This document shows, piece by piece, positions 25,548 to 62,827 of a stretch of DNA of 64,000 bases (position 1 is the first letter of the stretch; every line of letters begins with the position of its first letter). The position numbers were made by a program, and so were the translations under genes. The DNA is from Escherichia coli (GTDB taxonomy: Bacteria > Pseudomonadota > Gammaproteobacteria > Enterobacterales > Enterobacteriaceae), in the NCBI RefSeq assembly GCF_017348835.2, contig NZ_CP071375.1; one strand, 5' to 3'. The notes beneath the pieces were generated by a model that was given only the letters and a program-made list of their open reading frames with translations, was not told the DNA's origin and ran no database searches.

Positions 25548-25648
25548 GCCTGATGCGCTACGCTTATCAGGCCTACGCAGTACCTGCAATATATTGAATC
25601 TGCAGGACTTTGTAGGCCGGATAAGGCGTTAACGCCGCATCAGGCATT
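25548..25648. repeat. REP/BIME cluster between ybiT and ybiU
   Basis: cctgatgcgctacgcttatcaggcctac and gtaggccggataaggcgttaacgccgcatcaggc REP units. Confidence 0.65.
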
Positions 25649-55890: not shown

Positions 55891-55907
55891 TAGATAAATT
55901 TTAGGCA

Positions 55908-55988
55908 ACAAAAAACCCACCAACCTTGAACCGAAATGGCGGGGTTGATGGGCTCCACAAAATGGGGACATCAAAGAAAAGCAGTGGC
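55908..55988 (-). ncRNA. rybB: Small RNA RybB (sigma-E-dependent, Hfq-binding)
   Basis: Minus strand reads gccactgcttttctttgatgtccccattttgtggagcccatcaaccccgccatttcggttcaaggttggtgggtttttt, matching RybB from memory, including terminator hairpin and U-tail. Confidence 0.9.
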
Positions 55989-58397: not shown

Positions 58398-58426
58398 AGC
58401 CCTCAACGCGAGGGCTTGTCAGACGA

Positions 58427-58684
58427 TCAGGCGTCCAGATTTTCTTTCACCCATGCAGCAAAATCGGTATAGCCGCCGATATGTTGCTGATCGACAAAAA
58501 TCTGCGGCACGGTTTCTACGGGTTTACCTGCCTTTTGTTGTAGATCTTCTTTAGTGATCCCTTCCGCACGAATATCTACATACTGATACTGAAAATCATC
58601 GCGTTCATTGCTCAATTTCTCAGCCAGATCTTTTGCACGCACACAGTAAGGGCAACCCGGACGACCAAAAATAACGGTTTGCAT
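58427..58684 (-). CDS. grxA: Glutaredoxin 1
   Basis: ORF 58427..58699 trimmed to MQTVIFGRPGCPYCVRAK start (85 aa); CPYC active site. Confidence 0.93.
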   Translation of the reverse strand: MQTVIFGRPGCPYCVRAKDLAEKLSNERDDFQYQYVDIRAEGITKEDLQQKAGKPVETVPQIFVDQQHIGGYTDFAAWVKENLDA

Positions 58685-58843
58685 TATTTCTCTCCTCATA
58701 GATTTATGCCTGTAATGATCACGCTAAAATGTATTCGCTGAAAGTAGGTTTAACCTGTTGCATTAATTGCTAAAAGCTATAACTGTTAAACACAATACAG
58801 TGAAAAGTTTTAGACTGAAGGCTCACTTTGCAGAGGGAAGCGT

Positions 58844-59131
58844 ATGCGCGCGATCGGTAAATTGCCTAAAAGCGTGTTGATACTGGAATTTATCGGAATG
58901 ATGTTGCTGGCGGTGGCGCTGCTGTCGGTAAGCGACTCCCTGTCGCTGCCTGAGCCATTTTCTCGGCCAGAAGTGCAGATTCTGATGATTTTTCTCGGTG
59001 TTTTGCTCATGCTTCCCGCTGCGGTGGTGGTTATTCTTCAGGTGGCAAAACGTCTTGCCCCACAGCTGATGAACCGTCCACCGCAATATTCACGTTCAGA
59101 AAGAGAAAAAGATAATGACGCCAACCATTGA
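58844..59131 (+). CDS. ybjC: Small membrane protein YbjC
   Basis: 95-aa ORF overlapping nfsA start by 17 nt. Confidence 0.82.
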   Translation: MRAIGKLPKSVLILEFIGMMLLAVALLSVSDSLSLPEPFSRPEVQILMIFLGVLLMLPAAVVVILQVAKRLAPQLMNRPPQYSRSEREKDNDANH

Positions 59132-59837
59132 ACTTATTTGTGGCCATCGCTCCATTCGCCATTTCACTGATGAACCCATTTCCGAAGCGCAGCGTGAGGC
59201 GATTATTAACAGCGCCCGTGCGACGTCCAGTTCCAGTTTTTTGCAGTGTAGTAGCATTATTCGCATTACCGACAAAGCATTACGTGAAGAACTGGTGACG
59301 CTGACCGGCGGGCAAAAACACGTAGCGCAAGCGGCGGAGTTCTGGGTGTTCTGTGCCGACTTTAACCGCCATTTACAGATCTGTCCGGATGCTCAGCTCG
59401 GCCTGGCGGAACAACTGTTGCTCGGTGTCGTTGATACGGCAATGATGGCGCAGAATGCATTAACCGCAGCGGAATCGCTGGGATTGGGCGGCGTATATAT
59501 CGGCGGCCTGCGCAATAATATTGAAGCGGTGACGAAACTGCTGAAATTACCGCAGCATGTTCTGCCGCTGTTTGGGCTGTGCCTTGGCTGGCCTGCGGAT
59601 AATCCGGATCTCAAGCCGCGTTTACCGGCCTCCATTTTGGTGCATGAAAACAGCTATCAACCGCTGGATAAAGACGCACTGGCGCAGTATGACGAGCAAC
59701 TGGCGGAATATTACCTCACCCGTGGCAGCAATAATCGCCGGGATACCTGGAGCGATCATATCCGCCGAACAATCATTAAAGAAAGCCGCCCATTTATTCT
59801 GGATTATTTGCACAAACAGGGTTGGGCGACGCGCTAA
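59115..59837 (+). CDS. nfsA: Oxygen-insensitive NADPH nitroreductase NfsA
   Basis: 240-aa ORF; recognised sequence. Confidence 0.93.
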   Translation: MTPTIELICGHRSIRHFTDEPISEAQREAIINSARATSSSSFLQCSSIIRITDKALREELVTLTGGQKHVAQAAEFWVFCADFNRHLQICPDAQLGLAEQLLLGVVDTAMMAQNALTAAESLGLGGVYIGGLRNNIEAVTKLLKLPQHVLPLFGLCLGWPADNPDLKPRLPASILVHENSYQPLDKDALAQYDEQLAEYYLTRGSNNRRDTWSDHIRRTIIKESRPFILDYLHKQGWATR

Positions 59838-59897
59838 AACCGCCACGTCGATGTATGATACGCGGGCTTTTGACCAGGTCTGACAGAGAGGTGCAGG

Positions 59898-60800
59898 GTG
59901 AAAATTGCCATATTGTCCCGGGATGGAACGCTCTATTCGTGTAAGCGGCTGCGTGAAGCCGCTATACAGCGCGGTCACCTGGTTGAAATTCTTGATCCGC
60001 TTTCTTGCTACATGAACATAAATCCTGCGGCGTCTTCTATTCACTACAAAGGCCGCAAGTTACCCCATTTTGACGCAGTGATCCCGCGTATTGGCACCGC
60101 CATTACCTTTTATGGGACGGCGGCACTGCGCCAGTTCGAGATGCTGGGGAGCTATCCGCTCAATGAGTCGGTCGCCATTGCCCGGGCGCGTGACAAATTG
60201 CGTTCCATGCAACTGCTGGCGCGTCAGGGCATCGACCTGCCTGTCACGGGCATTGCGCATTCGCCGGATGATACCAGCGATTTAATCGACATGGTCGGTG
60301 GTGCGCCGCTGGTGGTCAAGTTGGTTGAAGGCACGCAGGGAATTGGCGTCGTGCTGGCGGAGACGCGTCAGGCGGCGGAAAGCGTGATTGACGCTTTCCG
60401 CGGTCTGAACGCGCATATTCTGGTGCAGGAATATATCAAAGAGGCGCAAGGGTGCGATATCCGCTGTCTGGTTGTTGGCGATGAAGTGGTCGCTGCGATT
60501 GAACGGCGGGCGAAAGAGGGCGATTTTCGTTCCAATTTGCATCGTGGCGGCGCGGCAAGCGTCGCCAGTATCACACCACAGGAGCGTGAAATCGCGATAA
60601 AAGCCGCGCGAACGATGGCGCTGGACGTTGCTGGTGTGGATATTCTGCGTGCTAATCGCGGGCCGTTGGTGATGGAAGTGAATGCGTCGCCGGGGCTGGA
60701 AGGAATAGAAAAAACCACCGGTATCGACATCGCGGGTAAAATGATCCGCTGGATCGAACGCCACGCTACGACAGAATATTGCCTGAAAACGGGTGGTTAG
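59898..60800 (+). CDS. rimK: Ribosomal protein S6 glutamate ligase RimK (ATP-grasp)
   Basis: 300-aa ORF. Confidence 0.93.
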
Positions 60801-60887
60801 TCGCAATCACATTACTGATCATGGTTTTGCCTGCGCTTTTTGCGTAAGCTGTGCCGGTCTTTTTATCGAAAGAGGTTGTACAAAATT

Positions 60888-61364
60888 ATGACATCGCTGG
60901 TCGTTCCTGGTCTGGATACGCTGCGTCAATGGCTCGATGACCTGGGGATGAGTTTTTTTGAATGTGATAACTGTCAGGCTCTGCATCTGCCCCATATGCA
61001 GAATTTCGACGGTGTCTTTGATGCCAAAATCGATCTGATCGATAACACGATCCTGTTTTCTGCCATGGCGGAAGTCCGACCTTCAGCCGTATTGCCGCTG
61101 GCGGCGGATTTATCTGCCATCAATGCCAGTTCGCTGACCGTGAAGGCATTTCTTGATATGCAGGATGATAATCTGCCAAAGCTGGTGGTTTGCCAGTCTT
61201 TATCCGTTATGCAGGGCGTAACCTATGAGCAGTTTGCATGGTTCGTGCGTCAGAGCGAAGAGCAGATTTCGATGGTCATTCTTGAAGCTAATGCCCATCA
61301 ACTGCTGTTACCGACTGACGATGAAGGGCAAAACAACGTTACCGAAAACTATTTCCTCCACTGA
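60888..61364 (+). CDS. ybjN: YbjN (putative sensory transduction regulator family)
   Basis: ORF 60840..61364 trimmed to MTSLVVPGLD start (158 aa). Confidence 0.85.
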   Translation: MTSLVVPGLDTLRQWLDDLGMSFFECDNCQALHLPHMQNFDGVFDAKIDLIDNTILFSAMAEVRPSAVLPLAADLSAINASSLTVKAFLDMQDDNLPKLVVCQSLSVMQGVTYEQFAWFVRQSEEQISMVILEANAHQLLLPTDDEGQNNVTENYFLH

Positions 61365-61714
61365 TAACTCCTTTCGAGCACGCAGTCGCTGGTGCAGTGA
61401 CTGCGCGCTGCAAAATTATCTGCTGTTTTTAACCTTTTCTTAAAGATTATTTCACTTCTCTTGTGTCGATTTGGCTTTATCACATAGAGCAAATACGCAT
61501 AAAAATTTGTTAAATACCGTTTTTTAATCCGAGCTATAGTCTCAAACCCTGGCTAAAGTTATTCTTGCGATGCTTTTATATAGCGAGCAGTGCTGGCCGG
61601 GAGAGAGTTCTCTTTTCTTACACCGCGCCGATAAAAAATATGCACGTTTATTGCATATCTTTCAGTGTGACAACTTTTGTTCGTTTGTTAACGAACTTTC
61701 AGAAGGAAAGAGAT

Positions 61715-62827
61715 ATGACCGCCTTAAATAAAAAATGGCTTTCGGGTCTGGTTGCGGGTGCTCTGATGGCCGTCTCTGTCGGCACGCTCGCGGCTGAACA
61801 AAAAACACTCCACATTTATAACTGGTCTGATTATATCGCCCCCGACACGGTGGCTAACTTTGAAAAAGAAACCGGTATTAAAGTCGTCTACGATGTTTTC
61901 GACTCTAACGAAGTACTGGAAGGCAAATTAATGGCCGGGAGCACCGGCTTTGACCTGGTGGTGCCGTCAGCAAGCTTTCTTGAACGCCAGCTGACAGCGG
62001 GAGTTTTCCAGCCGCTGGATAAAAGCAAATTGCCGGAGTGGAAGAATCTCGACCCGGAACTGCTGAAGTTGGTCGCCAAACACGATCCCGACAATAAATT
62101 TGCTATGCCCTATATGTGGGCGACGACCGGGATTGGCTATAACGTCGATAAAGTCAAAGCGGTGCTGGGCGAAAACGCGCCCGTCGATAGCTGGGACTTG
62201 ATCCTCAAGCCTGAAAATCTGGAAAAACTGAAAAGCTGCGGTGTATCTTTCCTCGATGCGCCAGAAGAAGTTTTTGCTACCGTGCTGAATTATCTCGGCA
62301 AAGATCCAAACAGCACTAAAGCGGATGATTACACCGGACCGGCTACCGATCTGCTGTTAAAGCTGCGCCCGAACATTCGTTATTTCCATTCATCTCAATA
62401 CATTAACGACCTGGCAAACGGCGATATTTGCGTCGCTATCGGCTGGGCAGGTGATGTCTGGCAGGCGTCAAACCGCGCGAAGGAAGCGAAGAATGGCGTG
62501 AATGTCTCGTTCTCGATTCCAAAAGAAGGGGCGATGGCGTTCTTTGATGTATTCGCCATGCCTGCGGATGCCAAAAATAAAGACGAAGCCTATCAGTTCC
62601 TGAATTACCTGCTGCGTCCTGATGTGGTGGCACATATCTCTGACCATGTGTTCTATGCTAACGCTAATAAAGCAGCCACGCCGCTGGTGAGTGCGGAAGT
62701 CCGTGATAACCCGGGTATTTATCCGCCTGCGGATGTCCGCGCGAAGTTGTTCACTCTGAAAGTACAGGATCCGAAAATCGACCGTGTGCGCACCCGCGCG
62801 TGGACCAAAGTGAAGAGCGGAAAATAA
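61715..62827 (+). CDS. potF: Putrescine-binding periplasmic protein PotF
   Basis: ORF 61565..62827 trimmed to MTALNKKWLSG signal-peptide start (370 aa); GGAAAGAG RBS. Confidence 0.9.
   Translation: MTALNKKWLSGLVAGALMAVSVGTLAAEQKTLHIYNWSDYIAPDTVANFEKETGIKVVYDVFDSNEVLEGKLMAGSTGFDLVVPSASFLERQLTAGVFQPLDKSKLPEWKNLDPELLKLVAKHDPDNKFAMPYMWATTGIGYNVDKVKAVLGENAPVDSWDLILKPENLEKLKSCGVSFLDAPEEVFATVLNYLGKDPNSTKADDYTGPATDLLLKLRPNIRYFHSSQYINDLANGDICVAIGWAGDVWQASNRAKEAKNGVNVSFSIPKEGAMAFFDVFAMPADAKNKDEAYQFLNYLLRPDVVAHISDHVFYANANKAATPLVSAEVRDNPGIYPPADVRAKLFTLKVQDPKIDRVRTRAWTKVKSGK

Follow-up and report, generated by a model that had tools for sequence, protein, structure and literature searches.

The ybjC-nfsA-rimK-ybjN locus of an Escherichia coli strain: comparison with the K-12 transcription unit, control region and non-coding elements

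The nitroreductase gene nfsA of E. coli K-12 lies in a string of four genes, ybjC-nfsA-rimK-ybjN (b0850-b0853; RegulonDB/EcoCyc). RegulonDB lists the string as a single transcription unit of that name, which SoxS activates (paraquat) and OxyR represses (PMC4207228; PMC3948049). OxyR is also curated as the activator of the divergent grxA (PMC4207228). A MarA ChIP-seq site with '+++' in-vitro binding has been described between grxA and ybjC (PMC5684230 Table 1), and ybjC is a SoxS ChIP-exo target as well (PMC5684230). The expression of nfsA is driven from the ybjC promoter (PMC6375286). In Salmonella, deletion of ramA lowers ybjC 2.9-fold, nfsA 3.2-fold and rimK 2.0-fold. The ybjC promoter and the co-transcription were reportedly mapped by Paterson et al. 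in 2002. Co-transcription of the four genes is taken here from secondary citations and database curation.

Two other described systems are close to parts of this locus. The promoters of fpr, zwf, inaA and micF carry an asymmetric 20-bp marbox (the MarA/SoxS/Rob box) upstream, have a poor -35 and have the box read along transcription. In overlapping gene pairs that are coupled by termination-reinitiation, the downstream start lies just upstream of the stop of the first gene, the second gene has no Shine-Dalgarno sequence, and the overlap is commonly 1 or 4 nt.

Here we compare a four-gene locus of E. coli with these systems. We hold with a probability of about 0.92 that it is the known ybjC-nfsA-rimK-ybjN operon of the MarA/SoxS/Rob regulon and that it is transcribed according to the full model proposed below. 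The operon, its regulation and the marbox are already documented and little here is new. Because the operon was described before, the analysis confirms the original prediction, which was made from the sequence, and adds little to it. It matters mostly as confirmation, the results being either established or incremental.

Gene content and conservation of the locus

The four genes lie in series on the + strand at positions 58844-61364 of the window, the whole 64,000-nucleotide stretch of DNA that was analysed (Table 1). They had been described as four co-oriented genes with short gaps; all are indeed on the + strand, with spacers of 60 nt (nfsA-rimK) and 87 nt (rimK-ybjN). The string sits between grxA and potF on one strand. 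Comparison with the orthologues of the K-12 unit found the genes, their order and their spacing all equal, and nothing substantial differs. The locus is 100% identical to that of E. coli PE164 and 99.5% identical to that of K-12 MG1655, with 15 SNPs across approximately 3 kb and none of them intergenic.

The gene names proposed earlier agree with RefSeq, Pfam and NCBIfam. The RefSeq annotations of PE164 and K-12 use the same four names, and the products match the Pfam families DUF1418, Nitroreductase, RimK with Rimk_N, and YbjN. NfsA scores 438 bits against the NCBIfam equivalog NF008033 (cut-off 223). RimK scores 670 bits against the equivalog NF007764 (cut-off 331) and has the pre-ATP-grasp and ATP-grasp domains (PF18030 and PF08443). 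A ybjN start at TTG 60840, taken from a mechanical list of open reading frames, was rejected; RefSeq and conservation across genera favour the start given in Table 1.

RimK and YbjN are the same proteins as in K-12, YbjC differs by G10S, and NfsA differs by I117T and G187D, both of which have been reported to be functionally silent. Judged from an intact gene, these silent substitutions and regulatory DNA equal to that of K-12, the nfsA allele is functionally wild type. Nitrofurantoin is activated by NfsA, and loss of NfsA is the first step of resistance. The expression of nfsA through the ybjC promoter, and possibly through ybjC translation, is relevant to the interpretation of upstream mutations in clinical isolates.

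At a coverage of at least 80%, the four-gene string was found in 5405 of 5426 complete E. coli genomes. The gene order and the ybjC/nfsA overlap also occur in other Escherichia, Citrobacter, Klebsiella indica and a 'Raoultella' MAG. The same 17-nt overlap geometry was present in 18 species genomes, a count from a scan that demanded the junction sequence and so measures the spread of this junction rather than the frequency of loci that lack the overlap; the order was sampled among close relatives only. Identical geometry was found in three loci (L002-L004) reached through YbjC protein look-ups, which are independent of the junction sequence. One of these, L002, has the NCBI protein name of Salmonella Derby, yet its DNA clusters with the Citrobacter youngae group, and it was not counted as Salmonella.

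Table 1. Positions of genes and non-coding features in the window
Feature	Position	Strand	Description
OxyR-consensus site	58744-58780	.	3 mismatches; contains the marbox core
MarA/SoxS/Rob box (marbox)	58757-58776	+	core GCATTAATTGCTAAA at 58760-58774, equal to the published MarA ChIP-seq site
Candidate -10 of ybjC promoter	58811-58816	+	TAGACT
ybjC	58844-59131	+	ATG start, 95 aa, DUF1418, two hydrophobic segments
ybjC/nfsA overlap	59115-59131	+	17 nt, nfsA ATG to ybjC TGA
nfsA	59115-59837	+	ATG start, 240 aa, oxygen-insensitive NADPH nitroreductase A
Conserved element of nfsA-rimK spacer	59852-59861	+	TGTATGATAC; -10-like TATGAT at 59854-59859; candidate internal promoter
rimK	59898-60800	+	GTG start, 300 aa, ribosomal protein S6 L-glutamate ligase
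Unexplained non-coding block upstream of ybjN	60836-60858	+	CTTTTTGCGTAAGCTGTGCCGGT; first 17 nt invariant
ybjN	60888-61364	+	ATG start, 158 aa, YbjN family PF10722
10-bp hairpin	61381-61405	+	17 nt past the stop codon of ybjN; the operon probably ends here

Control region between grxA and ybjC

The divergent region between grxA and ybjC is 159 bp long and its intergenic DNA is the same as in K-12. A search for a mar/sox/rob box upstream of ybjC had been suggested, and GCATTAATTGCTAAA was located there. Recognition of this site by consensus is poor. A scan allowing up to 2 mismatches gave no match upstream of ybjC; at 3 mismatches to the degenerate 19-nt consensus the site is picked up, but as one of 141 matches against 137 expected, a result that is not significant alone. 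As the consensus does not discriminate, we accept the site solely for its equality with the published ChIP-seq site. The RE2 half of the marbox varies in Citrobacter, where regulation may perhaps proceed through another site.

The consensus for tetrameric OxyR, ATAGnTnnnAnCTATn7ATAGnTnnnAnCTAT, which is said to come from Toledano 1994, gave one match in the 64-kb window at up to 3 mismatches and none in 100 shuffles. The consensus positions of this match are those that are conserved across genera. The ybjC marbox resembles those of fpr, zwf, inaA and micF in its asymmetry, its upstream placement before a poor -35 and its reading along transcription. Unlike these, it lies wholly within the OxyR site of the divergent grxA.

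Downstream of the marbox, the pattern TAnAnT of the hexamer TAGACT is kept in 18 of 18 aligned loci from Escherichia, Citrobacter and 'Raoultella', and we infer that this hexamer is the -10 of the ybjC promoter. It stands 34 bp from the marbox. Among the promoter classes of Martin and Rosner, we take this spacing to fit the class I type rather than class II.

Transcription of the four genes

[quoted passage not shown] Transcription would begin in the grxA-ybjC region, from a sigma-70 promoter that needs an activator. MarA, SoxS or Rob would occupy the marbox and OxyR the site that overlaps it, from which OxyR would turn on grxA divergently; for ybjC it is curated as a repressor. The transcript would run through ybjC and nfsA, the 60-nt spacer, rimK, the 87-nt spacer and ybjN, and would end at or near the conserved hairpin. 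Some stress-independent expression of rimK and ybjN probably comes from a second, weaker promoter between nfsA and rimK.

The original prediction of an operon would fail if each gene had its own promoter and terminator, the four being merely neighbours. Such an arrangement would account for the RNA-polymerase peaks seen by gSELEX within the nfsA-rimK spacer, for the conservation of two elements, the TATGAT upstream of rimK and the 17-nt block upstream of ybjN, and for the absence of ybjN from the genes altered at least 2-fold by RamA. However, no promoter or terminator can part ybjC from nfsA because the two genes overlap, which rules out separateness for that pair. Neither spacer contains a terminator-like hairpin, and their folds do not stand out from shuffled sequences (z = +0.3 and -1.0). 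A scan of 58400-61800 for promoters and terminators returned 3 of each kind against 4.1 expected, with none in the spacers, and Rfam gave no match within 58600-61750 up to E = 1. The sole conserved hairpin, and the only strong one, follows ybjN. The curated RegulonDB unit and the joint response of ybjC, nfsA and rimK to RamA also speak for an operon, and separate transcription of the four genes appears very unlikely. Even less credence can be given to the overlap as an artefact of annotation, with ybjC no real gene or with an nfsA start further downstream. YbjC is indeed small, of unknown function, and only 51-65% identical between genera, compared with 81-92% for NfsA, RimK and YbjN. Yet it matches Pfam DUF1418 with E = 1e-42, and natural deletion alleles of ybjC remove 6 and 9 aa (18 and 27 nt); these natural indels stay in frame, which supports ybjC as a real coding gene. 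As for the nfsA start, residues 1-240 of NfsA align from the first residue to the 240-residue chain of PDB 1F5V with 2 substitutions, and MTPTI(E/D) is conserved. The next in-frame ATG of nfsA is codon 110, and most of the nitroreductase domain would be lost from there.

A different matter is why these genes would be kept in one operon. How the four products are linked in function had been called not obvious, which is still a fair remark. The products could form one module, for example in redox stress, where membrane quinone/nitro reduction would be coupled to S6 remodelling and the shared function would keep the genes together. The conserved order in Escherichia, Citrobacter and K. indica and the inducible promoter common to all four genes speak for this. 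The linkage is not obligate, however: Erwinia has nfsA-ybjN without rimK, and the ybjN neighbourhood of Yersinia lacks nfsA and rimK (PMC3181261). Moreover, the conserved order was sampled among close relatives by a junction-biased search, and a biochemical link was not found in the literature examined. The rimK gene of Pseudomonas belongs to another operon, rimABK, which also counts against a single module. We consider such a module unlikely as the reason for the operon.

Translation of nfsA and conserved non-coding elements

Within the operon the 17-nt overlap of ybjC and nfsA is exactly as first described. The ybjC stop (59129-59131) is 14 nt past the nfsA ATG and the nfsA frame is +1 relative to ybjC. 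No Shine-Dalgarno sequence was found for nfsA. Its anti-Shine-Dalgarno duplex of -2.9 kcal/mol equals the window background (mean -3.0), versus -6.3 to -7.8 kcal/mol for ybjC, rimK and ybjN, with rimK having a strong site (-7.8 kcal/mol). The pair combines an overlapping start with a weak downstream ribosome-binding site, and the missing Shine-Dalgarno sequence makes it plausible that the translation of nfsA is coupled to that of ybjC. The placement of the nfsA start just upstream of the ybjC stop and the missing Shine-Dalgarno sequence of the downstream gene are as in coupled pairs; the overlap of 17 nt exceeds the 1 or 4 nt that are usual. Most likely, ribosomes that end at the ybjC stop would re-initiate at nfsA, or nfsA would be translated by Shine-Dalgarno-independent loading on an A-rich, unstructured leader. 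The sRNA SdsN137 has been reported to repress NfsA synthesis; this counts against coupling, as it could suggest that nfsA initiation can be targeted by itself. If nfsA were translated through reinitiation from ybjC alone, the membrane protein YbjC, itself poorly conserved, would be mainly a translated leader that sets the level of NfsA and hence nitrofuran susceptibility.

Both spacers contain conserved DNA. The element TGTATGATAC of the nfsA-rimK spacer is kept in 17 of the 18 aligned loci. The published gSELEX peaks assigned to this spacer are those of RpoD, RpoS and RpoN holoenzymes. The spacer contains neither a conserved -35 nor, despite the RpoN peak, a sigma-54 consensus. The peaks and the conserved TATGAT make an internal promoter before rimK likely. 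A hairpin at this element was rejected by eye on the alignment because the flanking arms show no covariation.

The block upstream of ybjN is the only unexplained item of the locus. The 17 nt that begin CTTTTTGCGTAAGCTGTGCCGGT are invariant in 15 loci; in these loci the longest invariant runs within the coding parts of nfsA, rimK and ybjN are shorter, at 11-16 nt. The block occurs once in the window and has no Rfam match and no conserved hairpin, a hairpin reading being rejected for want of a conserved 5' arm. Two stronger proposals can be made, either that nfsA is translated only by termination-reinitiation from ybjC or that the block at 60836-60858 is an undescribed operator or promoter through which ybjN would be regulated separately; taken jointly they are tentative, and we lean against them.

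The hairpin after ybjN probably marks the 3' end of the operon. The 91 nt from 61360 to 61450, hairpin included, fold with -27.1 kcal/mol (z = -3.3); none of 200 shuffled versions was as stable. Eleven sequences keep the hairpin, and 2 of its pairs show compensatory changes, at one of them from C-G to U-A in 5 of the 11. The T-run of E. coli begins approximately 20 nt beyond the stem; in Citrobacter the DNA directly after the stem is U-rich. A simple terminator scan missed the hairpin because the U-tract is not adjacent to the stem in E. coli. Since no U-tract directly follows this stem in E. coli, the hairpin may terminate transcription inefficiently or may serve to stabilise the end of the mRNA.

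Position 61400 of the hairpin is A here and G in K-12, so that a U-G pair is replaced by a U-A pair.

An operon already described

RegulonDB lists a transcription unit named 'ybjC-nfsA-rimK-ybjN', activated by SoxS (paraquat) and repressed by OxyR (PMC4207228). The four genes found here match the original prediction exactly in coordinates and description; that observation is confirmed, and its interpretation as an operon is supported. [quoted passage not shown] The string is a described operon, and all its essentials are already known.

RefSeq carries the same gene names and places the divergent grxA upstream of them and potFGH downstream. NfsA and RimK match their own equivalog models (438 bits, cut-off 223, and 670 bits, cut-off 331, respectively), YbjC matches the DUF1418 model and YbjN matches PF10722. 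PDB 1F5V aligns with NfsA across residues 1-240. E. coli PE164 carries the 2.8-kb stretch with 100% identity, and of 5426 complete E. coli genomes, 5405 have it at a coverage of at least 80%.

Features of the operon, its flanks and the rest of the window (anti-SD, anti-Shine-Dalgarno duplex in kcal/mol)
Feature	Position	Strand	Details
naRNA4	4083-4153	-	Rfam 72 bits, above gathering score
ES036	25569-25611	-	Rfam 42 bits, above gathering score
RybB sRNA	55907-55985	-	Rfam 104 bits, above gathering score
OxyR-consensus match	58744-58780		3 mismatches
MarA site GCATTAATTGCTAAA	58760-58774		exact match
TAnAnT hexamer	58811-58816		TAGACT in E. coli
ybjC	58844-59131	+	ATG start, 95 aa; anti-SD -6.3
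ybjC deletion region	58917-58949		6-aa or 9-aa in-frame deletions
CGCTGC repeats	58917-58922, 58944-58949		within ybjC
CTGTCG repeats	58922-58927, 58940-58945		within ybjC
ybjC/nfsA overlap	59115-59131		17 nt
nfsA	59115-59837	+	ATG start, 240 aa; anti-SD -2.9
NfsA I117T	59464		codon 117
NfsA G187D	59674		codon 187
TGTATGATAC	59852-59861		nfsA-rimK spacer (60 nt)
TATGAT	59854-59859		within TGTATGATAC
rimK	59898-60800	+	GTG start, 300 aa; anti-SD -7.8
Conserved block	60836-60858		rimK-ybjN spacer (87 nt)
ybjN	60888-61364	+	ATG start, 158 aa; anti-SD -6.5
Hairpin	61381-61405		10 bp, 17 nt past ybjN stop
Sigma-54-like element ATGCACGTTTATTGCA	61640-61655		60 nt 5' of potF start

From grxA to the end of ybjN there are 15 SNPs relative to K-12 MG1655; the three intergenic stretches have none. 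The RimK and YbjN proteins are the same as in K-12, YbjC has the change G10S, and NfsA has I117T and G187D. Because complementation and enzyme assay found both NfsA changes to be functionally silent natural polymorphisms (bioRxiv 10.1101/2024.01.25.577238), this allele predicts nitrofurantoin susceptibility. Elsewhere, nfsA is broken at about codon 211 in the type-strain draft of E. albertii NBRC 107761 (locus L006, 2261-2981), and nfsA and rimK lie in several frames in the C. koseri NCTC10786 assembly (locus L021, 529-2206); these are either real frameshifts, with loss of the nitroreductase, or assembly errors.

A functional link between the four products had seemed not obvious, and no biochemical connection among YbjC, NfsA, RimK and YbjN was found in the literature consulted on the genes. 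Erwinia has nfsA-ybjN without rimK, and in Yersinia neither nfsA nor rimK lies beside ybjN (PMC3181261), so the linkage is not universal. The simplest reading is that the genes are co-regulated under redox or xenobiotic stress, rather than forming one pathway.

The divergent control region

A scan with a degenerate consensus for the marbox, the MarA/SoxS/Rob binding site, was uninformative (141 matches at 3 mismatches vs 137 expected). The OxyR consensus has a single match in the whole window, between grxA and ybjC, and none in 100 shuffles. The original prediction had proposed looking here for a mar/sox/rob box, and the published MarA ChIP-seq site for this region, bound strongly in vitro (PMC5684230), is present. 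A SoxS ChIP-exo target has also been reported at ybjC (PMC5684230). The MarA box lies wholly within the OxyR match, so a stretch of about 37 bp serves grxA and ybjC, two divergent and differently regulated promoters. When 18 loci (Escherichia, Citrobacter and one 'Raoultella' MAG) are aligned, the columns conserved in this region are the OxyR motif positions, and Citrobacter has not kept the RE2 half of the marbox. The TAnAnT hexamer, kept in all 18, is a candidate -10 element of the ybjC promoter.

The ybjC/nfsA overlap and variation of YbjC

The ybjC stop lies 14 nt past the nfsA ATG, and nfsA is read in the +1 frame. The anti-SD duplex of nfsA is close to the window background mean (-3.0 kcal/mol), and nfsA is thus without a Shine-Dalgarno sequence; its start region is A-rich and unstructured (-7.2 kcal/mol, z = +0.5). 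These features fit termination-reinitiation from ybjC as well as SD-independent initiation, and do not prove coupling. The geometry is identical in three loci found through YbjC protein look-ups and in 18 species genomes (Escherichia spp., about 12 Citrobacter spp., Klebsiella indica and a 'Raoultella' MAG), the latter from a junction-pattern search that required the junction sequence and is therefore biased. The overlap-encoded D-x-N-H at the YbjC C-terminus is invariant.

Between genera YbjC is only 51-65% identical, vs 81-89% for NfsA, 87-92% for RimK and 84-88% for YbjN. Among the common ybjC alleles of E. coli are some shortened in frame by 6 aa or 9 aa; the 89-aa one was seen on 720 contigs. 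Short direct repeats border both deletions (18 nt and 27 nt), which points to replication slippage in the loop between the two YbjC hydrophobic segments.

Spacers and the 3' end

A scan found no terminator-like site in the nfsA-rimK or rimK-ybjN spacer, and the spacer RNAs fold no better than shuffles (z = +0.3 and -1.0). In Salmonella, ramA deletion lowers ybjC 2.9-fold, nfsA 3.2-fold and rimK 2.0-fold (PMC3139621), a pattern expected from a single promoter with decreasing polarity or from dilution by an internal promoter. An internal promoter is likely in the nfsA-rimK spacer, since Genomic SELEX found RpoD, RpoS and RpoN holoenzymes bound there, at a site assigned to 'rimK-ybjN' (PMC3946193, PMC5493296, PMC8743547). 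The TATGAT-containing element of this spacer is kept in 17 of 18 loci; no sigma-54 consensus occurs in the spacer. The corresponding K. indica spacer (locus L017, 1052-1169) is about 118 nt long, vs 60 nt in Escherichia and Citrobacter, and unrelated in sequence; it is without the TATGAT element, although rimK still has its Shine-Dalgarno sequence and GTG start.

No stretch of adjacent coding DNA is as well conserved as the block before ybjN, CTTTTTGCGTAAGCTGT(GCCGGT), in full CTTTTTGCGTAAGCTGTGCCGGT. Across 15 loci (Escherichia, Citrobacter and 'Raoultella') the first 17 nt of the block do not vary, whereas in the same loci the longest invariant runs within nfsA, rimK or ybjN are 11-16 nt and only 11-26% of third-codon-position columns are invariant; the block is therefore under selection. 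It has no conserved hairpin, Rfam match, clear promoter consensus or second copy in the window.

The 91-nt stretch with the hairpin past ybjN folds at -27.1 kcal/mol (z = -3.3; no shuffle as good). An equivalent hairpin occurs in related loci, with compensatory double changes at 2 of the 10 pairs among 11 aligned sequences. The E. coli U-run does not adjoin the stem, so the hairpin is a probable, not a certain, intrinsic terminator. Farther downstream, the sigma-54-like element before potF agrees with an RpoN gSELEX peak that has been published for the ybjN>potF spacer.
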